DNA of 64,000 nucleotides from a virus. The notes beneath the pieces are model-generated. The model made no database searches, was not told the DNA's origin, and saw nothing but the letters and a program-made list of their open reading frames with translations. The stretch lies in the UHGV virus genome UHGV-0311442, one strand, 5' to 3'. Numbering within the stretch: position 1 is the first letter of the stretch; every line of letters begins with the position of its first letter. Both the position numbers and the translations under genes were made by a program. This document shows, piece after piece, positions 19,181 to 53,481 of the stretch.

Positions 19181-19222
19181 GGGTAAAAAATGAAAATACC
19201 CTACTCCTGTCTAGGAGTAGGG
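19181..19222 (-). terminator. Rho-independent terminator (minus strand)
   Basis: Stem CCCTACTCC/GGAGTAGGG, loop TGTCTA, at 19199-19222; A-rich run on the plus strand just upstream. Confidence 0.65.
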
Positions 19223-28245: not shown

Positions 28246-28298
28246 AAAAGTAAAGTTACCCCTAGACCACACGGTCTAGGGGTAAACTATTTATTTCC
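28236..28298. terminator. Bidirectional rho-independent terminator
   Basis: Stem CCCCTAGACC/GGTCTAGGGG, loop ACAC, A-run upstream and TAAACTATTTATTT downstream. Confidence 0.7.
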
Positions 28299-29190
28299 CA
28301 CGATAAAATCCAGAAATGTAACTCGGCGCTATCCATCGCCATTCGCGCCAGCGCATTTCTGACATTTTACCACACCATACACGCTTCCAATGCGCACGAC
28401 GGATATGTGCGGCGCAATAAATCGCCAAACAAACCTCGTGTCCTTCCTTGCGTTGCTGCTCTATATCTTCCCATTGTACCGGACTTACGTCTAAAACGAC
28501 TGCTTCACTACGTGGGCGAATTTCTGTATCAGGAACATAACGAATGGACCTTCCGCGAAATTCTTTTTTCTCGCGCTCAGTTCGTTTAATTCGTGATGAA
28601 AGATATAACCCGATGTAGACGGCGTCGAGTAGTCGCTGATTCTCCTTAACCGAAGTAAGGAGCGGCTTTAACTCCACGAAATCATCATTACTTTTATCGA
28701 TCGTGTAAATCTCAAACTCCATGTATACCGACTCGTCATGTTCTTCGCATGACATCACAAAGAGAACTTCTTCACCTTCGTAAAGACGTCTTCCGATAAA
28801 TAACGTGATCGGACATTCGTCGAGATTTACGGTAACCGAGAAAGTAAATGAAGGGATGGTTTCTATCCAGAAGTACGGGATATTTTTTAGTCTCTCAGTT
28901 TTTGCTAAGAGTGCCATCAGTTCTTCATCCGAGATGATTTCAACAGCAGCGTATTGCCATCCTAGTCCCAGGGACTGCTTAATCAGTCTGGGAATCTGTT
29001 CGGTAACGCCATACTCACGATAGGTCGGATCTTTAACTGGCATAAACGTTACAGGTATTTGACGTTTATGCTCGTTAATGAACCGAATAAAGCGGCACTG
29101 ATCCAATCCGTGAATTGTTTGGTGTGCCTTTTCTATCTGTTCGCTCATGCGTCTTAGCGCTTTCCCGTAAAGTCTATTATTCGTTGTCAT
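28291..29190 (-). CDS. Hypothetical protein, paralog A of a tandem pair sharing a C-terminal AHIRRAHW motif
   Basis: Start refined to ATG at 29188-29190 (AGGAGC upstream), about 300 aa. C-terminus CAAHIRRAHWKRVWCG...WREWRWIAPSYISGFY matches the neighbour's AAHIRRAHWRRYWVGP...LYWIPPTFVRGYV. Confidence 0.6.
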   Translation of the reverse strand: MTTNNRLYGKALRRMSEQIEKAHQTIHGLDQCRFIRFINEHKRQIPVTFMPVKDPTYREYGVTEQIPRLIKQSLGLGWQYAAVEIISDEELMALLAKTERLKNIPYFWIETIPSFTFSVTVNLDECPITLFIGRRLYEGEEVLFVMSCEEHDESVYMEFEIYTIDKSNDDFVELKPLLTSVKENQRLLDAVYIGLYLSSRIKRTEREKKEFRGRSIRYVPDTEIRPRSEAVVLDVSPVQWEDIEQQRKEGHEVCLAIYCAAHIRRAHWKRVWCGKMSEMRWREWRWIAPSYISGFYRGK

Positions 29191-29215
29191 TTTAATGCTC
29201 CTAAACACTTTTAGC

Positions 29216-30142
29216 TTAATTGTGGGGTACGTAGCCACGGACAAATGTCGGTGGAATCCAGTAAAGTTTTCTCTTCCTTTCACCATTTCTAGGACCGACC
29301 CAATATCTGCGCCAGTGCGCGCGACGAATATGTGCGGCCTTGGCGTGTTTGATACCTTCCATGGTTTTCAAGTCAGTGTTAAACCCTTTTAGATAATTCA
29401 CTTGTCCTGGCGTGATATCTATCTTAACATCGCGTTCACGAGGTTTAACGTCGTAACTAATACTACCGTTCTTTTTGATTTCCTTGAACTTAATATCATT
29501 AAAAGACTCCCTGTAATTAGGCGGGATTAGCGTACAGAGAAATATCAACGATATGGCGGTTTTGGCCAGTGATAGCCATAACGTCTTCTCTTGTTCGGTC
29601 TGTACGCCAGTTGTATAATCGATTTCAACAAGCCCGTTTCCAACACTACATATCTCTAACGAGCAGGTGGCGATCGTGGTAACGCCTTCTGTTAACCCGT
29701 AATCAGTATTTGTAGCAATTATAATAAACCTTCTATTCCCATTTTTTCGATAACCGAGAAAGAAAGTCTCATCTTCTTTACCTACATCGATTGCTACAGT
29801 CCAAGTAGGTATAAAGTCTAACCACTCTTCAGGGAATTTACTGGGCATCTCAGTCTCGAAAACAAGTTCTCTAAGTGCTCGATTGGATATTAAGGAAGCG
29901 CCCCCGTATAGCCATCCAATTGCCAATGTTTGTGCGTGAAGGGAACGGGGATCTTTGAGACCTAACTCAGCGTCGTATGGTATAAAGGCATTAGTTAAAT
30001 GCTTACGATTCTTTTTTATCCATTTCGAGACGGGATTTTCTTTTGTTTGATTTTCTTCCATGACATTTTCTAGATGCTGACTCCCCATTTGTCTAAGGCA
30101 GTCTTTAATACCTTTTACTTTTTTACTTTTGTACAAATACAT
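29216..30142 (-). CDS. Hypothetical protein, paralog B of the same pair
   Basis: 308 aa, ATG with AGGAGA upstream; shares an internal LGWQY/IGWLY segment and the C-terminal motif with paralog A. Confidence 0.6.
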   Translation of the reverse strand: MYLYKSKKVKGIKDCLRQMGSQHLENVMEENQTKENPVSKWIKKNRKHLTNAFIPYDAELGLKDPRSLHAQTLAIGWLYGGASLISNRALRELVFETEMPSKFPEEWLDFIPTWTVAIDVGKEDETFFLGYRKNGNRRFIIIATNTDYGLTEGVTTIATCSLEICSVGNGLVEIDYTTGVQTEQEKTLWLSLAKTAISLIFLCTLIPPNYRESFNDIKFKEIKKNGSISYDVKPRERDVKIDITPGQVNYLKGFNTDLKTMEGIKHAKAAHIRRAHWRRYWVGPRNGERKRKLYWIPPTFVRGYVPHN

Positions 30143-35546: not shown

Positions 35547-36005
35547 TCAGTACAAACACGATGTCAAGTATTGGTTATACGAATCGAGCAGTGTCTGACG
35601 GTCGGAACGGTAATTCCACAACAAATTATTGAGTTTACGCGATAAATCACGGCTAATCTCTTGGGGCGTTAAAGAACTTTCATCAAGAGATAAGCGTTCA
35701 GGTACAACATGTAACTTCGGTAACTCATAACGTTCACAAAGTGGAGCCAGCATTGGTGGGCTCCAGCCACGTTTAACGGCTTGTTGGTTTAAATTTCGGG
35801 TGTAGACATAAACGTAGTAAGCATAGGTGTTGACATCCGCAACATACTCACGCATTGCATTATTGTCAATTTTCCAATTCACCATTATTGGCGGTGTAGG
35901 AGGAAGTTCCAGTGGCCTATAAGCTGGACGTTTAACTTCGTCGCCGTAGCTATTACTCACCAACCCCACGAACACCATCATGATGAATAACAGCATTTTC
36001 ATCAA
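35547..36005 (-). CDS. Secreted Pro-rich protein with N-terminal signal peptide (152 aa)
   Basis: N-terminus MMKMLLFIMMVFVGLVSNSYG then PAYRPLELPPTPP; no lipobox Cys. Confidence 0.5.
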   Translation of the reverse strand: MMKMLLFIMMVFVGLVSNSYGDEVKRPAYRPLELPPTPPIMVNWKIDNNAMREYVADVNTYAYYVYVYTRNLNQQAVKRGWSPPMLAPLCERYELPKLHVVPERLSLDESSLTPQEISRDLSRKLNNLLWNYRSDRQTLLDSYNQYLTSCLY

Positions 36006-36509
36006 TCACTCCTTAGAAGACGTTAGCGTCTTTATGATCTCCTGTCGAAAACTGTTCGCATTTAAATTGCCAACAGGTCTCGCCGAAGCCTCTTTACGTT
36101 GTTCTGGTGTTGAAGCTGGATTAACAGGAGTTTCTGGTTTTGTCGAAGACAGATCCTTCGCCGTACCGCTCGCTTTCGATGAATTAAACGTGCTTTCATA
36201 TGGCGGTTTCTGGCCGAGGCAAACGAAGAGCCTGTCGTATAACTTCCCATTATCTTCTTTTAGTTTATCTCGATCTTGTTTCATCTCTTGGTAAGACTGC
36301 GACATATAAGTGTCATGAGACTGCACTGCAACGAGCGCGTGAAACTGTTGTACATAGGCGTAGGAGACGAAGCCAGAATACGACAACAAGATCGTGATGA
36401 TTAAAGTCATTATCTTGCTTGCTCTTGATACGTTTTCTCCTTCTCCTGGTTTAAATGCTTCCATTAACATCTGAAGGAAGAACGGAAGCACTTTAAAAAA
36501 TGAACCCAT
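36006..36509 (-). CDS. Membrane protein with one internal TM helix and coiled-coil region (167 aa)
   Basis: Hydrophobic segment IMTLIITILLSYSGFVSYAYV then charged heptad-like segment; abuts the downstream secreted protein gene. Confidence 0.5.
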   Translation of the reverse strand: MGSFFKVLPFFLQMLMEAFKPGEGENVSRASKIMTLIITILLSYSGFVSYAYVQQFHALVAVQSHDTYMSQSYQEMKQDRDKLKEDNGKLYDRLFVCLGQKPPYESTFNSSKASGTAKDLSSTKPETPVNPASTPEQRKEASARPVGNLNANSFRQEIIKTLTSSKE

Positions 36510-36534
36510 TGCTCACCTCGGAGTATTTTTAATT

Positions 36535-37908
36535 ATGTTAGACTTACAAGGTTTTATTCAGATACCGGCACTGTTTGACAATCAGGACGGCGTCACCGCT
36601 CCGGTGGGCGAGCTGTCGGATTTGACACTCTCGTACGCGAAGAGTAAACAGACGTTTACTAAAACCAATTTGCAAGTTCAATTGGTGACTTTTACGTCTA
36701 AACGAGAAAAACAGACGGTTGTTGTGCCAGCCGAGTTTTCTGATCATATTCTAACCGTTTCTCAATGGATTTACCAGCAAGCCATCTTGGGGAATCTGAG
36801 AAATGACGAACTCGAATTCCAGCGCCTGTTATTAGGCCAATTCCAATCAACCATTTCTGGTGTTCAGTCTGGTGCGATGATACAGACGAACAGTAACTGG
36901 TTCCCACGTTGGGTGAGCTGGAAATATGAAGTAACGGCAGATCAAGTACAAGATGACACTGATGTAGATAATCAGATCATTGTTTGGTTCTCGGATGAAG
37001 ACTTCGATCAAGATTACACAGGGTTCGAAATCGAAGTACAGATGCCGATTTCACCAATCGACACATTTTTGTCGACCAAGTCAGTCGTTGAAAAGGCGAT
37101 GGAAGGGTTTAACCTTACCGAACACCATAAGAAAATCAATGAGTTAATGGCAGGGTTTCCTTACACCGCTATCCAAACCAACTACTATACTTGGCACGAT
37201 CAAGAAAACTACGAGTCCACCCTAGTTGTCCCAATGTCGGTTATTATTTACGGACGTGCGGGGAAAAACCCAACGAAAATAAAGCAGGCGTTGCGAGAAC
37301 ATATTCTCGCTAATTCCAGCTTTACTGTCCCTGTCGGGGTAAAAGTATTTCCCGAGATTTTCACTACCACGAAATTTACAATTGTTCCCGGATGGAAAAT
37401 TCGTGGAATACCCAATGAGGAAGATGTGGCGGCGCTTTATTCCCCCATCCTTCCATATGATTTCTGGGTCAAAGCTATCAGTCGGTTTGGAGAATGGGCA
37501 GACCTGACGGTAGCAGAAAGAAATACTAAAACGATCAGTAAACCTACAACAGACGTAACTGACTTACCAACAGTTTATAAATCATTAAACTGTGTTGTAA
37601 TCAGTGGGCCGGAAAACGATACACGGAAAGCGACCTTACACGAAACTATCCCGGATTATGCGTTAATTGCGACGACTAACCCTGATATTGCGCGTATGTC
37701 GAAAACAACGACCGAATGGTTGGCGTTATTCTTCCAGGCACTTATTGCTGCGGAAGAATACCACCCGTATCAAACCAGCTTAGATGTTGTAAAACTGGTC
37801 GATGAGGCCGACCCTGATAACTACTTCTGGGTGTTTGAATACGACAACGTAGAATATCGTATCCTGTCTCGGAAAGCGAAATGGTACACCGAGTTAGACG
37901 AGGAGTAA
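36535..37908 (+). CDS. Hypothetical protein (457 aa), plus-strand island
   Basis: ATG at 36535, 25 bp from the divergent minus-strand gene start. Confidence 0.6.
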   Translation: MLDLQGFIQIPALFDNQDGVTAPVGELSDLTLSYAKSKQTFTKTNLQVQLVTFTSKREKQTVVVPAEFSDHILTVSQWIYQQAILGNLRNDELEFQRLLLGQFQSTISGVQSGAMIQTNSNWFPRWVSWKYEVTADQVQDDTDVDNQIIVWFSDEDFDQDYTGFEIEVQMPISPIDTFLSTKSVVEKAMEGFNLTEHHKKINELMAGFPYTAIQTNYYTWHDQENYESTLVVPMSVIIYGRAGKNPTKIKQALREHILANSSFTVPVGVKVFPEIFTTTKFTIVPGWKIRGIPNEEDVAALYSPILPYDFWVKAISRFGEWADLTVAERNTKTISKPTTDVTDLPTVYKSLNCVVISGPENDTRKATLHETIPDYALIATTNPDIARMSKTTTEWLALFFQALIAAEEYHPYQTSLDVVKLVDEADPDNYFWVFEYDNVEYRILSRKAKWYTELDEE

Positions 37909-37911
37909 TGA

Positions 37912-38535
37912 ATGGCTACGCGTTTACCACTCCAGGTACCGGTCAACACCACGGGACTGTTCAAAGTAAAAACACCATTTACTTTGGCCGAGACGGTCAT
38001 TTATACGGTAGAAGCGTCACGTACCTTCCCAGATTTAGTACGTCAGAATATTGACGTTTATAACTCGTATTACCAGCCAGTAGGGCTAGGACGTGAAGAA
38101 TATTTAGCAGATGCGAATGTTAGTGCGTCGATTCTGACATTTAAATCTCGGGACGGTCAAGTTGTATATATACCTGACACCTACCTGGAATCATACCCAG
38201 GTTTATCCGGGATCACGTATCAACGAAATGTGTTAGTGGTAGATTTGGCACTGGTACCGGATTACGTGAAAGTGTCGTCTATAACAAAAGACGTTTCAGA
38301 TATTCTCACGCATACACTAGGGATTGAGCCGAAAGTTGAAATTACAACACTCGAGTATGAGGGGAAGGTAACGGAGGAACAACACTTGCAGATGGAAGCG
38401 GCACGAAAAAATAAAATTCGTGAATCTATTCCATTAGGTGAGAAAGTTGCTGCGTTGACAGAAGAGAACAAAAAATTAAAAGAGTTAAACAACCAAATGT
38501 TAGAGATTCTTAAAGCTAACGGGTTAGTTAATTAA
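37912..38535 (+). CDS. Hypothetical protein with C-terminal coiled coil (207 aa)
   Basis: ORF 3 nt after the previous gene; C-terminus EENKKLKELNNQMLEILK. Confidence 0.55.
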   Translation: MATRLPLQVPVNTTGLFKVKTPFTLAETVIYTVEASRTFPDLVRQNIDVYNSYYQPVGLGREEYLADANVSASILTFKSRDGQVVYIPDTYLESYPGLSGITYQRNVLVVDLALVPDYVKVSSITKDVSDILTHTLGIEPKVEITTLEYEGKVTEEQHLQMEAARKNKIRESIPLGEKVAALTEENKKLKELNNQMLEILKANGLVN

Positions 38536-38580
38536 AAAAGATTACCCTACTCCTTCGGGAGTAGGGTAGCTTTTATTTTA
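38534..38580. terminator. Bidirectional rho-independent terminator
   Basis: Stem CCCTACTCC/GGAGTAGGG, loop TTCG, A-run upstream and T-run downstream. Confidence 0.75.
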
Positions 38581-39129
38581 AATGTCGACTTCTAGTTTAC
38601 GGTAATCGATGACGCCTTGAGCAATCATAGCAGCAACATCGTTCCAAGTACGAAAAATGAAGTAAACGGTATCCCCGTTTAAATAGATATTGGATTCTTT
38701 ATCCGGGAAATCATCTTCACTGAGGTAGTAGTAGGGTTTGTCGAATGGGAAGTCACGTTCATCAGAGGAACCAAGTACCGCATAACGATTGCCACAATCA
38801 AACAGAATCTTCCAACCAGACATTTCACTATTAGCGTCAATACGATCGTCGATTTCAACGGTAATAGGAGAATGATCAAGAAAGCTGATTGTAACCTCCC
38901 CGTTATGTTGTCGTTTGAATCGATGAATATCTGTAGGCACAATTTCAGATGCTGCTATAAGGGAATAAAGTTGCGTTACGGTGATCTTTTTGTAAACACT
39001 ATCGCCATCCCACAAACGATCAAATAAGAAATTAGCCAGGAAATTTATATCCTTTAAACGTGAACGGAAAACAGAGCCACGACGAATACCGTAAGCCAGA
39101 TGAGTTAAATATTCAGACGATGGAAACAT
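38578..39129 (-). CDS. Hypothetical protein, member of a tandem paralog pair (183 aa)
   Basis: N-terminus MFPSSEYLTHLAYGIRR and internal GDTVYFIFRTWNDV match the neighbour's MTFPSEVIYELANTLRR and GGVVYFILSNWSHV. Confidence 0.55.
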   Translation of the reverse strand: MFPSSEYLTHLAYGIRRGSVFRSRLKDINFLANFLFDRLWDGDSVYKKITVTQLYSLIAASEIVPTDIHRFKRQHNGEVTISFLDHSPITVEIDDRIDANSEMSGWKILFDCGNRYAVLGSSDERDFPFDKPYYYLSEDDFPDKESNIYLNGDTVYFIFRTWNDVAAMIAQGVIDYRKLEVDI

Positions 39130-39145
39130 TTTAATACTCCTAAGG

Positions 39146-39184
39146 TGGAAAAAAGAATTAACCCTACTCCCGGAGGAGTAGGGG
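39146..39184 (-). terminator. Rho-independent terminator (minus strand)
   Basis: Stem CCCTACTCC/GGAGTAGGG, loop CGGA; A-run on the plus strand upstream. Confidence 0.65.
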
Positions 39185-39191
39185 ATTTAAA

Positions 39192-40124
39192 TTACTTTTT
39201 GGTTTGACCCAGGTTTTCAAGAACCAGCTCACGAATGTACTTCTGAGTACGTTTCTTCGGTGGTAAAGCCATAAGGGTGTCAACGATTCCCTGGCCGCCG
39301 ATAACCTTGCTGACGAGTTGTTGAACTTGGAAGAGTTCTGCTTCTTCGTCGCTAATTTCGTTAGCTTGGTCTTTCTGACACAATGCTTCTACCAGGTCAG
39401 CTACGGATATTTCATTTTCGTCACCAGGGAAATCCAGGTTTAACGATTCGAAAACATCACGCTTAACGAGCACAGATTTCAGATCATCGTAGTTTTCACA
39501 AACGGCGACTTCTGTGCCAGGTACCGTTTCTTCTTCGTCTTGATCTTCATTCTCAGCGGAGAGGTAACTTACTTCTGTTGCGTGGAATGTTGCGTCAGCT
39601 TTTCTCAGGACGTAGCTCACATGCGACCAATTGCTCAGGATGAAGTAGACAACACCCCCATTTAATCCGATATTGCCCTGGCGAAGTTCGAGAGCAATTT
39701 CCAGGCGGCGTGAAATCTGCCCCAAGTCAAAGAAAGACTCGTCGCGTGCCGCAACAACTTCGTACTGATTCACCCCTTGTTCTACAACAACGAACCAGTT
39801 ATCCGGGAGAGGATACGGGTTGCGCATGAAAGAAAGTTCGTTCCCTACGCCTGGGTCAACAGTAACGGATGTATGGCGCATTCCCATGGAGAAGTTGAAC
39901 GTATCCCCATTTAGAACCGCAATTGCACCGTCAATCGGAAGAATTTTGGTGGTACGATCAATAGAGAAAATCTCTTTCTGCGCAATTGAAGGCTGATTAC
40001 TGCCTAGGAAATGGTTACGCAGAAAAGCAGCGGTTGGGCCTAAGCTGGCTTGCAGTATATGGTAGTTATAACGACGACGCAGCGTGTTAGCCAGTTCGTA
40101 AATTACTTCAGATGGAAAAGTCAT
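39192..40124 (-). CDS. Hypothetical protein, larger paralog of the pair, acidic C-terminal half (310 aa)
   Basis: Shares N-terminal and central segments with the 183-aa neighbour; D/E-rich C-terminal region. Confidence 0.55.
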   Translation of the reverse strand: MTFPSEVIYELANTLRRRYNYHILQASLGPTAAFLRNHFLGSNQPSIAQKEIFSIDRTTKILPIDGAIAVLNGDTFNFSMGMRHTSVTVDPGVGNELSFMRNPYPLPDNWFVVVEQGVNQYEVVAARDESFFDLGQISRRLEIALELRQGNIGLNGGVVYFILSNWSHVSYVLRKADATFHATEVSYLSAENEDQDEEETVPGTEVAVCENYDDLKSVLVKRDVFESLNLDFPGDENEISVADLVEALCQKDQANEISDEEAELFQVQQLVSKVIGGQGIVDTLMALPPKKRTQKYIRELVLENLGQTKK

Positions 40125-40177
40125 TTTAATAGTCCTCTTTTAGGTTTGTTCAAATCAACTAAGGGTTATGTAAAAAG

Positions 40178-40657
40178 TTAAAATAATGGCAAGTTACGCC
40201 ATTGCCCTACCGAGTAAAAAGCTTTTGGATGTTTACGGATATACGCTTTCGCTTCTTCTGGCAACCAACGATCGCCTACCAGTTTTTGTTGTGCAACAAT
40301 TACCGCCATCAACAAATACGGATTTTTCGCACCGGGGAACTTTGCATTGGTTTCTAGCGCAATATCCAACATTGACGACCAGCCCAATAATTTATGTTGC
40401 GCCGGTAAACGTTCTTCAATATACATCAGCCATTTCATGATTTGTTTAGGCTTATACGGACAGGTATAATTCGCCCAACAGACCATGACGAACTTAATAG
40501 CCTTCGCAATCACCCATACAGGGACAGTCACGAAAAGGCAGAAAATGGCCAACTGCGAGGCGGGCGCTTCGACAAAAGTAATCGCCACAAGGACCATAAA
40601 CAATTCAAGTACCACAAACCAAAAACGCGTTGGATAACGCCAAATGAATTTTATCAT
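40178..40657 (-). CDS. Integral membrane protein with multiple hydrophobic segments; holin candidate
   Basis: 159 aa with at least three hydrophobic stretches; two genes downstream of the secreted lytic transglycosylase in the same transcriptional direction. Confidence 0.35.
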   Translation of the reverse strand: MIKFIWRYPTRFWFVVLELFMVLVAITFVEAPASQLAIFCLFVTVPVWVIAKAIKFVMVCWANYTCPYKPKQIMKWLMYIEERLPAQHKLLGWSSMLDIALETNAKFPGAKNPYLLMAVIVAQQKLVGDRWLPEEAKAYIRKHPKAFYSVGQWRNLPLF

Positions 40658-40680
40658 AACTCTGTTCCTTTAGGGAATGA

Positions 40681-40718
40681 AAATAAAAGTACCCCTTACT
40701 CCGTATAGGGTAAGGGGT
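40681..40718 (-). terminator. Rho-independent terminator (minus strand)
   Basis: Stem CCCCTTAC/GTAAGGGG with 10-nt loop; A-rich run on the plus strand upstream. Confidence 0.5.
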
Positions 40719-40723
40719 AGAGG

Positions 40724-41233
40724 TTAGAAGAACGGCTGGTTTGGAATGACAGCGTACTCTAAAATGAACATGTGTTCTGGGGCGTCTTCTTTACGCCAGA
40801 CTTTGTGCGTCGTCACAAGTTTTTCCAGAATCGTTAAAAAACTACGCTGGCAGTATGTGTTTTCACCAAGCAGTAGATTTTGAAGTTCTACAGTAGCGTC
40901 CATATACGCCTGTTTAAAGACTAAACTACGATTATACTGTCCGGTAAAATTCCAAAGCAAGACTTTCCCTTCTTCGGTTTCTTTTACCGTTGGCCGTAAA
41001 CCACAAATCCACAACAAGGCAAGGTTGACGTTCCAGTCAAACTCTAAACCTTCTTCTTCGTCATCACCGAATGCTGTGGGTAAAGCATCGTAAAATTCGT
41101 GTTTCTCTGCGAATTCTTCATCTGACTTAATCTCGTCTTCGATGCTGCTTCGGACGATACTGTAAACGTCTTTCGCGGTCAATTGTGCGGCTTTTGTAAT
41201 GCCTTTATACCAATCGGTTACTACGATGCTCAA
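40724..41233 (-). CDS. Hypothetical protein (169 aa)
   Basis: ORF between the lytic transglycosylase and the membrane protein. Confidence 0.5.
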   Translation of the reverse strand: MSIVVTDWYKGITKAAQLTAKDVYSIVRSSIEDEIKSDEEFAEKHEFYDALPTAFGDDEEEGLEFDWNVNLALLWICGLRPTVKETEEGKVLLWNFTGQYNRSLVFKQAYMDATVELQNLLLGENTYCQRSFLTILEKLVTTHKVWRKEDAPEHMFILEYAVIPNQPFF

Positions 41234-41955
41234 AGGGTAACTCCTCTATTGATTGGAAAACTCGTGTTTATCGTATCCCAAATTTTACTAACTTCCGCCA
41301 ATTGAATCTGACGTGGTGTTTTCTTCGCAAACGCAAGCTGACGTGGGGCCGAGCCCACAACAACAGGCACATCGATTTTCGCGCTATAGAACGCGGCGTC
41401 TTTCATAAAGCCTGCCATTTCTCGTTGTGCTGCTCGAGATTTGCTTTTGATTCGCGTGTGAGCGCCACTTTCACCCCAGTGGTAAGCTAACGCAACTTCA
41501 GCCATGGTGGGCTTGCGTTTGAGTCGTTTGGTTAACCCCTTTTCAAGATGTTTAACATACGCGGCAGCCAGCAAAACAGCATTACGCGGATTATACAAAT
41601 CGGCGTTCTGACTAAGACCTAATTCTTTTCCATAAAGCCTTAGCAGATTACGCTTGGTACTTGGAAGCATCTGTACCAGGCTGTGTGCTCGTGAGCTTTT
41701 GTTGTAAGCCTTGGGATCAAAACGCGATTCACGATAAATCAGCGTAATCATCAGCTTAGGATCAACGCCTTGCTTTCGAGAGATTTCCACAATTAACGGG
41801 CTGACTTTTTCGAACCGATGTTGGATTTGTGTAAACTCACGCTGATGCTTAGATTGCGGCGTTGATGTTGACGCCTGTGCGTTAAACGCGAAAAGTGTTA
41901 CCAGTAAAAGAAAGAAGATACGAAACATTTTGTTTCTCCAGTTGGATTTATACAT
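41230..41955 (-). CDS. Secreted or signal-anchored soluble lytic transglycosylase; endolysin candidate
   Basis: N-terminal hydrophobic segment MFRIFFLLLVTLFAFNAQA, then SLT motif LIYRESRFDPKAYNKSSRAHSLVQMLPST. Start may be the internal Met at about 41928. Confidence 0.6.
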   Translation of the reverse strand: MYKSNWRNKMFRIFFLLLVTLFAFNAQASTSTPQSKHQREFTQIQHRFEKVSPLIVEISRKQGVDPKLMITLIYRESRFDPKAYNKSSRAHSLVQMLPSTKRNLLRLYGKELGLSQNADLYNPRNAVLLAAAYVKHLEKGLTKRLKRKPTMAEVALAYHWGESGAHTRIKSKSRAAQREMAGFMKDAAFYSAKIDVPVVVGSAPRQLAFAKKTPRQIQLAEVSKIWDTINTSFPINRGVTL

Positions 41956-42020
41956 TTCCGTATTCCGTAAGACGAAATGACGGCGCGGACAGCTAATACT
42001 CCTTTGTTGTGTGCCCTAAT

Positions 42021-42031
42021 GATAATATCTA
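42021..42031. promoter_or_regulatory. Copy of recurrent motif GATAATATCTA
   Basis: Overlaps the stop of the macro-like gene, upstream (in minus orientation) of the lytic transglycosylase gene. Confidence 0.3.
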
Positions 42032-42589
42032 TTTAAAAGAGTTTGGAATTAATGACTCTGCTTCTCGGTACAGCTTATCGGGTAAGTATAACGTGTAGTG
42101 TTGTCTCCTCGGTTCAAGTTTTTTGTAAAGCCACAAAAAGATTTCTTGTCTTTCCCAGGAATCTAACCACCCATTTGCCATCCCCAGTGGAGGGATAGCA
42201 ACGCTGGTATCCAGTTCCTCAACACAATCTGCTAATGCGGTAATGCCCGCAGTAACATAAGAAACCTGGGACTTTAAACGCCAATGTGTTTTCGTTGGGA
42301 GCAAGATGCACTTTTCATCAGGGTAAACGTAAACGCTTCCAATCTTAATTTCGTCTTCGCGACACCGCTTACGGTAATCTTGATAAAGGTTGGGGTAGCG
42401 TTCACGGCACGCCAGTGCAATACCGCGACCCATCGCTCCTACGCAGTTAATGGTAACGACTTTATAGTCTTCGGGCGCATTAAAAAGATCGTTACCAATT
42501 TCAGATTCTTTACGTACCGTTAACATAACGAAACGCCCGGAGTTGATGTGTAGTATTAAAACGTGTACCGCCGATTGATAACTCGACAA
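42029..42589 (-). CDS. Macro-domain-like protein (putative ADP-ribose binding or processing)
   Basis: YKVVTINCVGAMGRGIALA fits the Gly-rich macro loop pattern and SVAIPPLGMANGWLD fits the second macro motif; probable start at internal Met near 42526. Confidence 0.4.
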   Translation of the reverse strand: MSSYQSAVHVLILHINSGRFVMLTVRKESEIGNDLFNAPEDYKVVTINCVGAMGRGIALACRERYPNLYQDYRKRCREDEIKIGSVYVYPDEKCILLPTKTHWRLKSQVSYVTAGITALADCVEELDTSVAIPPLGMANGWLDSWERQEIFLWLYKKLEPRRQHYTLYLPDKLYREAESLIPNSFK

Positions 42590-42613
42590 GTATAGCGATA
42601 TATGTTTTACCCA

Positions 42614-43250: not shown

Positions 43251-43700
43251 TTAGAATGTTTTGCTAAAATCGACCCACTCACGATCGTGCGAGTAAACCG
43301 CCTGATAGCCGCGTCGGATGAAATACTCTTTTGCTTCTTTACATTTCGCATACATGCCAGTAACAATCTCGCCGAAAACTTCATCAGCTGCAATTGCTTT
43401 GAAAATCTCTTTCATTACACCCCGTTGACGGTAGTCTGGGAGCACGTATACTGAACGTATCTTAAGTGAACCGTTACGATTCCGATAACTACAGTATCCT
43501 ACCGCGACGTCATCCTGATACACCAGAACTATGCAGTTACCTTCGATCAGTTGCCGAGCTTTTAATTTCGGTACCGACGTTTTGATTTTCAGTAACGTGG
43601 CCTGGTGGTCTAAGTAACGGTAGTGCAGTTTGAGTAAATCGGCAGCTTGTCGCTCACCGACTTTAGAAGATGCGTTCAACAAATAAATTTCCATTTGCAA
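43251..43700 (-). CDS. GNAT-family N-acetyltransferase
   Basis: 149 aa; VAVGYCSY...IRSVYVLPDYRQRGVMKEIF matches the GNAT acetyl-CoA-binding motif A. Confidence 0.65.
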   Translation of the reverse strand: MQMEIYLLNASSKVGERQAADLLKLHYRYLDHQATLLKIKTSVPKLKARQLIEGNCIVLVYQDDVAVGYCSYRNRNGSLKIRSVYVLPDYRQRGVMKEIFKAIAADEVFGEIVTGMYAKCKEAKEYFIRRGYQAVYSHDREWVDFSKTF

Positions 43701-47437: not shown

Positions 47438-47914
47438 TTACAGCCCTAAGTGCGTGAGTGATAAAATAGGTTGTGTTTCACCTTTAATCGTCGCGAAGGA
47501 ACGATACATTTCTGCGTTACTTGAAAAAACTTCGTTAGCAACGATACATTCACCCGTCTCTAAAGAAAGGAGATAAATGTAGTCGCTCCATACGCTTTGT
47601 ACCAACACCCACTCAAGTGCGGTATCATTTTCGCGTGTTGTTCGCAGGTGGTGAAAGTAAGGACGGATTGCATCAACTGCCGCATTAAAACGACGGTGAT
47701 AAATTCGGGTTAAATCAAAGGTCCAGATTGTTTCCAGGTCGACTGGATGTAGTGTGCGCACCGTTTCGATAATTGTCGACTGATCATTAAGGCGCGAGGC
47801 TTCGGCGATACGCAGCAGTTTCCAGGCCACCGTTAAGTTGTGGCGAATTTGTTCAGGTTTAGCCGACAGGTCATGATGAAATTGCGCAGCTTGGTAAACG
47901 TTAGATAATTGCAT
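47438..47914 (-). CDS. Hypothetical protein (158 aa)
   Basis: ATG with AAAGGAG upstream. Confidence 0.5.
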   Translation of the reverse strand: MQLSNVYQAAQFHHDLSAKPEQIRHNLTVAWKLLRIAEASRLNDQSTIIETVRTLHPVDLETIWTFDLTRIYHRRFNAAVDAIRPYFHHLRTTRENDTALEWVLVQSVWSDYIYLLSLETGECIVANEVFSSNAEMYRSFATIKGETQPILSLTHLGL

Positions 47915-47942
47915 TTTAATACTCCTTTAGGTAAACATGTCG

Positions 47943-50903: not shown

Positions 50904-51677
50904 CTATTGATTAAGTTTTACATCGGCAATAAACAGCAATTGTTTACCATGTTGCTGCACTTCTTTCCAACCTAGTTTCATAGCAGCGTCAACAACATCT
51001 AACATGCTGTAACGGGACATCAACGCGGTTGATTTTGTTCCTGACATTAAATAAAGCGGCTCATTAGGGCAACGGTCTCGAGCATCAGGAAGTTCTCGAA
51101 TAACCGCTGAGCCTTCGGGTGCGGTAACAACGTGAATCACGGTAAATGGTCTCTTATGCGTTAAATAGATACGAAATCCAACGTGTTCAGATTCATGAAA
51201 GATTTTCTTCACAACCACATCTTTTAGTGTTGTCTGAACATCATCCCCAGGTAATATCGTGGATTCACGAGAAACGAAACAACGACTATTTTCAATCGTG
51301 GAGAAATAATTACGTATCGGCAAACTGGCGTTATGATCGCGCAGTTTTTTGCTCAATAGATCGAAGTTCAGTTCTTTAACTTTTTCTAACCACTCTTTGG
51401 CTTGTTGAATGTAATAACTACCAACAGCGCGATAAGTTAATACCTTACCTGTGCTCACTTTCCAAAGCTTGATGCTTAGTGAATTTGGCTTATAGCGACG
51501 ATACTCACCCTGCGTATGGTTGATGCGCTCGTAACGCTCTACATCATCAACTGGTGCAGATTCGACCGATTGTAATTGCAGCGTACGATCTAATCTATCG
51601 GCAAATAGTAGTGATGATAGCGGGCCTTCGATCATATACGGTTCGGTTTTAAAGATATCGTCTAAATGGACTTTCAT
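50904..51677 (-). CDS. Paralog family member 1 (257 aa) with C-terminal GW...QLLF(I/V)AD module
   Basis: C-terminus AAMKLGWKEVQQHGKQLLFIADV; N-terminus MKVHLDDIF matches member 4 (MKELLDDIF). Confidence 0.55.
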   Translation of the reverse strand: MKVHLDDIFKTEPYMIEGPLSSLLFADRLDRTLQLQSVESAPVDDVERYERINHTQGEYRRYKPNSLSIKLWKVSTGKVLTYRAVGSYYIQQAKEWLEKVKELNFDLLSKKLRDHNASLPIRNYFSTIENSRCFVSRESTILPGDDVQTTLKDVVVKKIFHESEHVGFRIYLTHKRPFTVIHVVTAPEGSAVIRELPDARDRCPNEPLYLMSGTKSTALMSRYSMLDVVDAAMKLGWKEVQQHGKQLLFIADVKLNQ

Positions 51678-51744: not shown

Positions 51745-52896
51745 TTAAAGGTCAGCAACAAACAGCAGCTGACTGCCGTACGGTTCGACAGATTTCCAAC
51801 CGTAATCTTTACCGATCGTCGTTAGATGGCCGGTATTTAACTTTTTGTCAACCATCCGCAGACGCATCATTAGCGTATTGGATTCTGCCGCATCGAGTAA
51901 CAACGCAGGTTCTTTTTCAGTGCGGTCATCCGCTTTCGGGAAGAAACTGTAATACTGACTTTTGGGCAGTTCGATTGTCAACGTATAGTTTTTCTTTGTA
52001 ATGAATAACGCCATCCCTTCGAAATTACAATCGAAACGATATTCCCAACCCGCCTCGGCTAAAACGTCTTTTAGCATTTCCATGACTTTAAGCTGGTTAA
52101 CGCTAGGCAGTCGGTAAGCTGCAAGGTTACTTGGAAATATGCGTATACCGTCGACGACACTATCGGTGGTTTCGTCAATAAGTTCAGGATAACGTTGCGA
52201 GAAAATATGATCGCTCTTGCTTTTCTCTTCGATGTCACGAATGAATTGGGCTATTTCGTCTCTTAAGCCAGACACTTGATTTTCTCCTTCGACTTCAATA
52301 ATCTGGTGGGGTTCGCCGCTAATTAAAATGTGGTAAACGATGTCGTCGGTAGAACGGTAAGTGAGTTTGATAGCTTTATCACTTAACATTTCGTAGCGGA
52401 AGAAACTTTCGTACCAAGTTGACCCGAAATCGTTTCGTGTAAGTTCCTGCTCAACTTTGATGGTTTTTGCTTCAAAACCAATTAACCCACTTAATAACGC
52501 GTGTTCTGGTTTAGTTAAAATGTTCGCACCGTGAAAGGGCACTTTCTCAAGCTGAAAACATAAATTACTGACTTTACCACTTGGGAAGACCTTAAACATA
52601 ATCTTCCGGCTGCTACTCTTTTCCCTAACAACGAGTTTACGGTAATTTAGTCCACAATTTGTGTAAACCGCGAACTTGTAACCTTCAATTTCTTCATCGT
52701 AAGTACAGACATCGACAGGTGCGATAATCTCATTGTATTCAGTAAGTACACAGCAGCCCAAGTTATAACCAAACAACTCACGTTGTAATGAAGATTCGAT
52801 GGTTAAGCTTGGTAGTGACCAAGTCCGATTATAGCATCTGTCCATCAGTTCTTTTAGGATCTTGGCATGTCCTGGCTTAGAAATAATATTTCGCAT
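51745..52896 (-). CDS. Paralog family member 2 (383 aa), module present twice
   Basis: C-terminus GKDYGWKSVEPYGSQLLFVADL plus internal AEAGWEYRFDCNFEGMALFITKK. Confidence 0.55.
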   Translation of the reverse strand: MRNIISKPGHAKILKELMDRCYNRTWSLPSLTIESSLQRELFGYNLGCCVLTEYNEIIAPVDVCTYDEEIEGYKFAVYTNCGLNYRKLVVREKSSSRKIMFKVFPSGKVSNLCFQLEKVPFHGANILTKPEHALLSGLIGFEAKTIKVEQELTRNDFGSTWYESFFRYEMLSDKAIKLTYRSTDDIVYHILISGEPHQIIEVEGENQVSGLRDEIAQFIRDIEEKSKSDHIFSQRYPELIDETTDSVVDGIRIFPSNLAAYRLPSVNQLKVMEMLKDVLAEAGWEYRFDCNFEGMALFITKKNYTLTIELPKSQYYSFFPKADDRTEKEPALLLDAAESNTLMMRLRMVDKKLNTGHLTTIGKDYGWKSVEPYGSQLLFVADL

Positions 52897-52926: not shown

Positions 52927-53481
52927 TTAAGCAGGGTAAGCTAAAAACAACAACTGCTGGCCGAGTTTACGTACAGTATACCAACCGTGGGCTTTAGCGA
53001 CCGCGATCAACGTTTCCCAGTCATCAACATCACACTGCTCATTCCGAAGTCTTGTAAAGAGTGCCTCGGCTTCGCTTTGGTTTAATAACTTACCTGGGTT
53101 GTCTGGGGTGCAGTCAGTAGGGGTTGGAAAGAAAGTATACTGACGCGCTAGGAGAAAATCGACCAGATACTTGGTATTTTCTTTATAAACCAGCGTGGAA
53201 GACTTTCCTTCGTGGAAGAAGCTGCCTGTTTTCCAAGCGCTATCCCCCAGTAAGCTCTGAAGGTAATCTGTAAAGCCCGTTCTGAAAGGGATATGGTTTT
53301 TACGTGTGATGTTACGACGCAGCGGGGTTTCCTCTACAGCTTGTACACCCACCCCTACTATCATCGCACCTGGCTGAATAATGCTATTGGTCAGTACGGT
53401 ATAAGGACGGACAAAGAAATGTTCGCCTACGCCTTTTTCAAGGGTTTGGATAATTTCATTTTTCAGTTCAGTTTGAAACAT
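52927..53481 (-). CDS. Paralog family member 3 (184 aa)
   Basis: C-terminus AVAKAHGWYTVRKLGQQLLFLAYPA. Confidence 0.55.
   Translation of the reverse strand: MFQTELKNEIIQTLEKGVGEHFFVRPYTVLTNSIIQPGAMIVGVGVQAVEETPLRRNITRKNHIPFRTGFTDYLQSLLGDSAWKTGSFFHEGKSSTLVYKENTKYLVDFLLARQYTFFPTPTDCTPDNPGKLLNQSEAEALFTRLRNEQCDVDDWETLIAVAKAHGWYTVRKLGQQLLFLAYPA

Follow-up and report, generated by a model that had tools for sequence, protein, structure and literature searches.

Tandem paralogs are routine in jumbo phages. SPN3US carries a 17-member family of head paralogs, and a phiKZ gp131-like family has also been described (PMC5105663). These families consist of virion proteins, with a common pattern of local tandem duplication and strong divergence. 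Another jumbo-phage family, phrog_11818, is catalogued and uncharacterised; it comprises SPN3US gp201, ChrisDB gp222 and their counterparts in Seoulvirus, Machinavirus and related Erwinia phages. The SPN3US virion proteome contains 83 proteins, including gp193, gp202, gp203 and gp214, but not gp201 (Table S4, PMC5105663), and because gp201 is missing from this table we take the SPN3US ortholog to be a non-virion protein. Our literature search found no paper mentioning gp201, the sole trace being a tolerated missense change, R68C, in a mutant table. Here we describe a pair of gp201-type genes in a 64,000-nucleotide stretch of the virus genome UHGV-0311442 (hereafter, the window). The open reading frame (ORF) encoding 310 amino acids (aa), ORF310 (39192..40124, minus strand), is a full-length two-domain protein with the ancestral architecture, while its downstream neighbour ORF183 (38578..39129, minus strand, 183 aa) is a derived paralog reduced to the N-domain. 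The pair is real, but it represents fairly ordinary gene-family evolution: like the virion families it combines local tandem duplication with strong divergence, and it differs from them in that the gp201 ortholog is not detected in virions and in that duplication is coupled here to the loss of a domain.

The two genes are adjacent and head-to-tail. A first-pass annotation, made from the letters alone, had called both of them and had quoted similar strings from their translations, N-terminal (MFPSSEYLTHLAYGIRR and MTFPSEVIYELANTLRR) and central (GDTVYFIFRTW and GGVVYFILSNW); we found both ORFs on the minus strand at the stated coordinates, with all the strings in place. The phrog_11818 profile covers nearly all of ORF310 (E 2e-30, residues 3-307 on profile positions 2-293 of 295), and orthologs occupy the same syntenic slot in ChrisDB (gp222), SPAsTU (_00239) and SPN3US (gp201, SPN3US_0201). 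Identity to the proteins of Salmonella Seoulvirus and Erwinia Machinavirus-type phages is 22-26%, and a profile search started from ORF310 also reaches the 377-aa SPN3US gp201. The profile match, the genomic position and a two-domain architecture with an LPxKKRT motif all agree with family membership; with its MxFP N-terminus, N-domain core residues, LPxKKRT motif and syntenic slot in common with the described members, and only 20-26% identity to them, ORF310 is by homology an ortholog of SPN3US gp201 (phrog_11818). The same profile matches ORF183 weakly and in the N-terminal half alone (E 0.012). This protein stops at the domain boundary and lacks the two-domain/LPxKKRT architecture, and is by these comparisons a truncated derivative, not a canonical phrog_11818 / gp201 member. 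What is new here is therefore a divergent member of a catalogued family, ORF310, and a truncated derivative, ORF183, that is unique to the clade of the window and has no counterpart in the SPN3US gp201-type relatives. This clade is formed by contigs of ~222 kb, taken partly from assemblies of E. coli, Shigella and Salmonella and partly from metagenomes, and is represented by seven genomes (the window, L003, L005 and L008-L011).

The gp201 family is tiny. An exhaustive hidden Markov model (HMM) search of 1.84 billion (1.84e9) representative proteins gave 18 hits, about 13 of them genuine; these are all two-domain proteins of 290-401 aa, with the cluster containing ORF183 as sole exception. The two longest hits (P0067 and P0068; 1,600-1,800 aa), considered as remote relatives, proved to be spurious, i.e.: Chlamydia-PMP/Ig-repeat adhesins matched via repeats. 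An HMM search of all 410 stop-to-stop ORFs of the window found no further copies of the N- or the C-domain, and neither protein has a sequence match in Pfam, NCBIfam, PADLOC or the PDB; for PADLOC and NCBIfam, zero families reached E ≤ 1 with ORF183, ORF310 or the SPN3US-type ortholog.

That the two genes are related had been proposed on the basis of the shared motifs, and the similarity proved to be significant far past the first residues. BLASTP aligned residues 2-181 of ORF183 with residues 3-185 of ORF310 at 25% identity (E 2e-7), and an hhalign comparison of the family alignments (A1, 13 sequences, for ORF310; A2, 8 sequences, for ORF183) gave a probability of 98% with E 1.6e-13 over 165 columns. 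The AlphaFold model of ORF183 (predicted local distance difference test (pLDDT) 83, predicted template modelling score (pTM) 0.82) begins with three helices, continues with a beta-rich module and closes with a further helix, and the order of helices and strands is the same in residues 1-177 of the ORF310 model (pLDDT 72-92). With the ORF183 model as query, Foldseek matched the N-domains of family orthologs from Erwinia phages alone (E 8e-9, template modelling score 0.67). BLASTP, hhalign and Foldseek rule out a chance similarity confined to the N-terminal motif, and the two genes are true, very diverged paralogs (~21-25% identical), with a divergence similar to that of orthologs from other genera.

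The limits of the domains indicate the direction of the change. In ORF310 the N-domain (residues 1-177; 39594..40124, minus strand) is followed by an acidic linker predicted to be disordered (residues ~178-212; 39489..39593, minus strand) and by a helical C-domain (residues ~213-310; 39195..39488, minus strand). ORF183 ends about 10 residues after the last helix of its N-domain, at the point where the linker of ORF310 begins, and all family members outside the clade possess both the linker and the C-domain. Since the outside orthologs have two domains and ORF183 ends at the linker start, the ancestor was a two-domain protein and the downstream copy lost the rest. The initial view that the larger gene adds a tail has to be reversed: every ortholog outside the clade already has linker and C-domain, and it is the small copy that lost them. 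SPN3US, SPAsTU and ChrisDB contain a single two-domain gene in the slot, directly followed by the convergent tail gene, while both genes are present and intact in 7/7 genomes of the window's own clade. In a neighbour-joining (NJ) tree of N-domains, the 183-aa family and the 310-aa family of the same clade group as sisters (86% bootstrap), apart from all other orthologs. The proposed local duplication is thus upheld as a lineage-specific one by the adjacency of the genes, the tree and the lack of a second copy in the three relatives. Altogether, these comparisons show ORF183 to be the apparent product of a tandem duplication in the ancestor of the ~222-kb clade, followed by loss of the linker and C-domain in the downstream copy.

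We estimated selection as the median pairwise ratio of nonsynonymous to synonymous changes (dN/dS) among the seven clade genomes. Values were 0.27 for the N-domain of ORF310, 0.18 for ORF183, 0.11 for the C-domain and 1.06 for the linker, compared to 0.03-0.14 for seven neighbouring genes. The dN/dS values mark both paralogs as functional genes, kept intact under purifying selection, and the linker evolves neutrally (~1.06). The N-domain of ORF310 is the fastest-evolving folded module of the locus. The C-domain has proportions of nonsynonymous and synonymous differences (pN and pS) of 0.01-0.05 and 0.08-0.27 across the seven genomes, and it retains 92-98% DNA identity where the N-domain falls to 50-65%.

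This mosaic reflects recombination. The flanking genes define three backbone groups ({window, L009, L011}, {L003, L008, L010} and {L005}), and the alleles of the N-domain group discordantly ({window, L008, L009}, {L010, L011} and {L003, L005}), while the ORF183 alleles are all alike except in L005. Breakpoints of N-domain exchange lie at about 40130 and about 39550. As an example, identity between L011 and the window is 98-100% up to the start codon, 47-83% across the N-domain (about 40100-39560), and again 93-98% from the linker onward. L008, in turn, has a backbone only ~75% identical to that of the window, yet is 87-100% identical across the whole pair (about 40190-38500). From these two patterns it follows that recombination has exchanged both the N-domain by itself and the pair as a whole. 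The N-domain is replaced precisely from start codon to linker, and the pair moves between phage backbones. The conserved leader (40125-40190), the C-domain and the terminators serve as anchors of these exchanges. We also observed that the C-domain (39192-39570) and most ORF183 alleles have a pS of 0.08-0.27, against 0.5-0.77 in flanking genes between backbone groups, which suggests a recent recombinational spread of the C-domain/ORF183 segment through the clade.

Each copy is followed by a hairpin and a T-run, as the first-pass annotation had pointed out. The hairpin scan placed the one after ORF310 at 39162-39183 (minus strand; stem CCCTACTCC-loop-GGAGTAGGG plus T-run), and the one between ORF183 and the convergent DUF7194 tail gene at 38545-38566 (feature 38543..38568), where it was scored on both strands. 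Both are stem-loops with a T-run downstream of a stop codon, the structure of an intrinsic terminator, and in both of them the stem is conserved and the loop variable across the seven clade loci. In SPN3US and SPAsTU the hairpin found after ORF183 recurs, again within a AAATAAAAGC context, in the gap that separates the gp201 homolog from the gp202 homolog, and its ChrisDB counterpart at the orthologous site carries a compensatory stem change (CCCACTCC/GGAGTGGG); sites of this hairpin family in relatives' loci lie at about 4640-4690 in L007 (SPN3US) and at about 5945-5990 in L001. By its predicted structure and its conservation, this hairpin is the ancestral one, a putative bidirectional terminator. 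The intergenic leader of ORF310 (40125..40190, minus strand), which includes the ribosome-binding site (RBS) GGACTATTAAAATG and forms the 5' edge of the exchanged cassette, is 97-100% identical in all clade members whatever their backbone.

We considered whether the shared hairpin stem and RBS could be proof of co-duplicated regulatory DNA and ruled this out, as both recur at unrelated genes. Hairpins with the CCCTACTCC/GGAGTAGGG stem occur three times in the 64 kb (19199-19222, 38545-38566 and 39162-39183) against an expectation of 0, and the context of the shared RBS, GGA(C/G)TATTAAAATG, is found again at 47912-47925. Because hairpin and RBS are genome-wide motifs, the presence of an own terminator after each copy is not evidence on the duplication unit. 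The gap between the first hairpin (39162-39183) and the RBS of ORF183 is only about 30 nucleotides, so ORF183 may need read-through or a very compact promoter. Many genes of the window have a common layout consisting of a hairpin, a T-run (often TTTTTAC) and then CCTAAAGGAG..ATG, and such layouts may be combined terminator/promoter units.

The window belongs to an SPN3US-like jumbo phage. Its jumbo-phage genes include those for giant virion proteins, SbcC, UvsX, RNase H and an RNA polymerase beta subunit of the split multisubunit type. Its clade probably belongs with the persistent 'Seoul-like' jumbo phages that have been reported from bacterial isolate assemblies (bioRxiv 10.1101/2024.12.31.630880). 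Among isolated phages we found no close relatives, either by megablast of the locus (36500-42600) against 50,697 phage records or by tblastn with ORF183. Gene order is kept in ChrisDB, SPAsTU, SPN3US and the window, running from a macro-domain protein through an SLT enzyme, a phrog_8114 protein and a small membrane protein to the gp201-type gene, followed by the convergent DUF7194 (gp202) and gp203 tail genes; in the window this conserved slot holds one inserted gene more, ORF183. Both copies belong to a long run of non-structural genes on the minus strand and are oriented towards the tail genes, with which they converge.

Several neighbours carry membrane or export signals: the SLT enzyme (41230-41955; SLT Pfam hit, with an N-terminal hydrophobic segment resembling a signal or signal-arrest-release (SAR) sequence), a 159-aa protein with two transmembrane (TM) helices that is holin-like (40178-40657), a 167-aa protein with one TM helix and a coiled-coil-like tail (36006-36509), and a 152-aa protein with a signal-like N-terminus (35547-36005). 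They form a possible split lysis neighbourhood, interrupted by the convergent tail-gene pair, and their PHROGs are of 'unknown function'. Just upstream in the same strand block lie a macro-domain protein (42029-42589; Pfam Macro, phrog_335) and a GNAT acetyltransferase (43251-43700), both conserved in ChrisDB and both candidate host-modification or counter-defence genes. An all-vs-all BLASTP detected at least three tandem paralog sets in the window, ORF183/ORF310 included. The others are a pair at 28291-29286 / 29216-30142 (E 6e-19) and a triple at 50904-51677 / 51745-52896 / 52927-53481 (E 1e-10 to 1e-4), so that local duplication is common in this genome.

We turn now to what the two proteins might do. 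The positions invariant across both paralog families (M1, P3/4, A12, R16, P65, F83, W106, F127, V155 and W162) are mostly of the aromatic, aliphatic or proline core type; no catalytic-type constellation was seen among them, and we infer a binding rather than an enzymatic role. A family-wide list of invariant positions (M1, F3, P4, A12, R16, P63, F78, W110, F132, V159, W166 and similar) is likewise mostly core-type, and the residues that the family conserves are nearly all of the hydrophobic core. Neither ORF183 nor ORF310 contains a hydrophobic segment. The N-domain of ORF310 is near neutral in charge. The C-domain is acidic except for its last 25 residues, which are basic (pI 10.3), and across all orthologs (alignment A5) its invariant positions are one V and the K-K-R-T of LPxKKRT, with L and P near-invariant. 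This motif, present in ORF310 as ALPPKKRT (residues 286-293; 39246..39269, minus strand; also visible in alignments A1 and A3), is the only near-invariant stretch of the C-domain among all orthologs, although within the clade the whole domain is nearly invariant. No Pfam or PDB match to the C-domain was found. ALPxKKRT superficially resembles a basic localisation or phospho-acceptor motif, a curious resemblance in a nucleus-forming lineage and a purely speculative one. The linker carries indels and varies in length and content between orthologs. SPN3US-type orthologs (377 aa; L007 3501-4634; P0026-P0054) contain between the N- and C-domains an extra, well-conserved insert of ~70 aa (…NIDWVKVFTANPGFRGQTINPGEVTWEGF…) that has no counterpart in the window clade or in the SPAsTU/ChrisDB types, and that may be a third module in the linker.

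A conserved anchor joined to an exchangeable specificity domain is an arrangement generally seen in tail-fibre/receptor-binding proteins and in a number of counter-defence proteins. By analogy, ORF310 would resemble such modular host-interaction proteins in having a near-invariant domain and a fast-evolving one that is swapped at the domain boundary. It has no sequence or structural relation to any of them and, as a putative non-virion protein, would not be a receptor-binding protein. In our reading, both proteins would be soluble, cytoplasmic, non-enzymatic binding proteins. The C-domain with its LPxKKRT end would tether ORF310 to a partner that is itself conserved, whether phage machinery or a component of the host. 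The variable N-domain would confer specificity towards a partner that also varies; a host factor is the most plausible candidate, on the model of host-takeover or counter-defence proteins. The flexible acidic linker would then act as a spacer between the C-terminal anchor and the exchangeable specificity domain, and ORF183 could be a free N-module with diverged specificity, untethered, acting alone or as a competitor or modulator of ORF310.

Taken jointly, we hold an origin by duplication and an adaptor-type binding mode to be rather probable, the mechanism being much less certain than the origin. A number of points weigh against this reading. The NJ tree is a simple one built on very diverged sequences (~20-25% identity), in which long-branch effects are possible. 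Gene-wide positive selection on the N-domain is not shown, a dN/dS of 0.27 meaning relaxed or faster evolution in an estimate complicated by recombination. The synonymous divergence of the C-domain is unusually low (pS ~0.17 vs 0.4-0.5 for neighbours), and the cause could be a recent sweep by recombination instead of a stronger constraint. The C-domain model of ORF310 is of low confidence (pLDDT 50-62), non-virion status is known for the SPN3US ortholog and not for the phage of the window, and the literature, family, structure and defence libraries hold no functional match for the pair.

Other explanations have to be set against this one, beginning with the origin itself. ORF183 could be an N-domain fragment of another phage's gp201-type gene, acquired horizontally and inserted beside the resident copy, as the locus is a demonstrable recombination hot-spot and the divergence between the paralogs is about that seen between orthologs of different genera. 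Yet the tree joins the ORF183 family to the resident ORF310 family, no donor-like relative exists among the 1.84e9 representatives or in the phage collection, and the arrangement is tandem, head-to-tail, with a hairpin and RBS of the same type, all of which makes such an acquisition decidedly unlikely. As for function, the larger protein had been said to end in an acidic tail that might act as a DNA mimic. A strongly acidic segment is indeed present, but it is a linker, predicted to be disordered, rather than a tail, and it is followed by a helical domain with a basic end. An Ocr/ArdA-like decoy, directed at restriction or at nucleic-acid-binding proteins, would fit the overall isoelectric point (pI) of ORF310 (4.65) and that of the linker (4.05; 10 D/E and 0 K/R in 35 aa), and phages of this kind do face host nucleases. 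The likeness to Ocr and ArdA is nevertheless one of composition: comparisons with Pfam, the PDB and known folds gave no similarity to such mimics (Ocr PF08684, ArdA PF07275), the segment richest in acidic residues is predicted to be disordered (pLDDT <40), evolves at a dN/dS of 1.06 and varies in length among orthologs, and a basic motif closes the conserved portion of the C-region. The DNA of nucleus-forming phages is already shielded from nucleases, which further disfavours this suggestion, and we find it highly improbable.

The neighbourhood inspires two more alternatives. One is that soluble gp201-type proteins bind the cytoplasmic part of a holin-like protein and delay or tune lysis in an antiholin-like manner. 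The pair adjoins the signal/SAR-type SLT muramidase and the two-TM 159-aa protein, with the spanin-like 167-aa and 152-aa proteins across the tail-gene pair, and the order SLT - phrog_8114 - small membrane protein - gp201 homolog is kept in SPN3US, ChrisDB and SPAsTU. Seoul-like phages are reported to live persistently and non-lytically, and control of lysis would fit this as well; members of the clade occur in assemblies of bacterial isolates, and the paper on persistent phages discusses lysis inhibition. We judge this role unlikely, given that no neighbour is experimentally defined as a holin or spanin and their PHROGs are of unknown function, that the 152-aa protein has no lipobox cysteine, that neither protein is similar to known antiholins, and that the 159-aa gene next to the pair shows no co-variation with the N-domain alleles. 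Our search of the literature for the SPN3US lysis cassette found nothing specific. The other alternative makes the proteins non-virion chaperones or scaffolds for the convergent DUF7194/gp202 and gp203 homologs or for fibres, with the N-domain fitting a variable structural client. They immediately adjoin the homologs of two proven SPN3US tail proteins, they are acidic, and assembly chaperones are typically not in virions. But the genes are convergent with the tail genes and belong to a separate transcription unit in a non-structural minus-strand block, and the adjacent tail proteins are highly conserved (pN ≤ 0.08), with groupings discordant with those of the N-domain alleles. A role in tail assembly is for these reasons very unlikely.

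Duplication with domain loss, coupled to an adaptor-type mode of binding, is hence the reading we retain. A bolder extension of it, which we regard as doubtful, would make the N-domain a new fold and an exchangeable host-targeting (counter-defence or host-range) module of nucleus-forming, persistent Seoul-like phages, tethered via the C-domain/LPxKKRT to conserved phage machinery. In that case ORF183 would add a second specificity without a tether, or act as a decoy, and the locus would be an arms-race cassette site in Chimalliviridae-type phages.

The pair offers an example of how jumbo phages build gene families, through tandem duplication, domain loss and recombinational shuffling of one module, and two ORFans can now be annotated as SPN3US gp201-family proteins. 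The SPN3US-like, nucleus-forming phages are under consideration for therapeutic use and reportedly persist in isolates of Salmonella, E. coli and Shigella, and knowledge of their accessory genes outside the core is very scant. The locus would matter more if the variable N-domain were truly a host-interaction or counter-defence module, and the clean domain boundary, the natural series of alleles and the natural N-only paralog make this question experimentally tractable.

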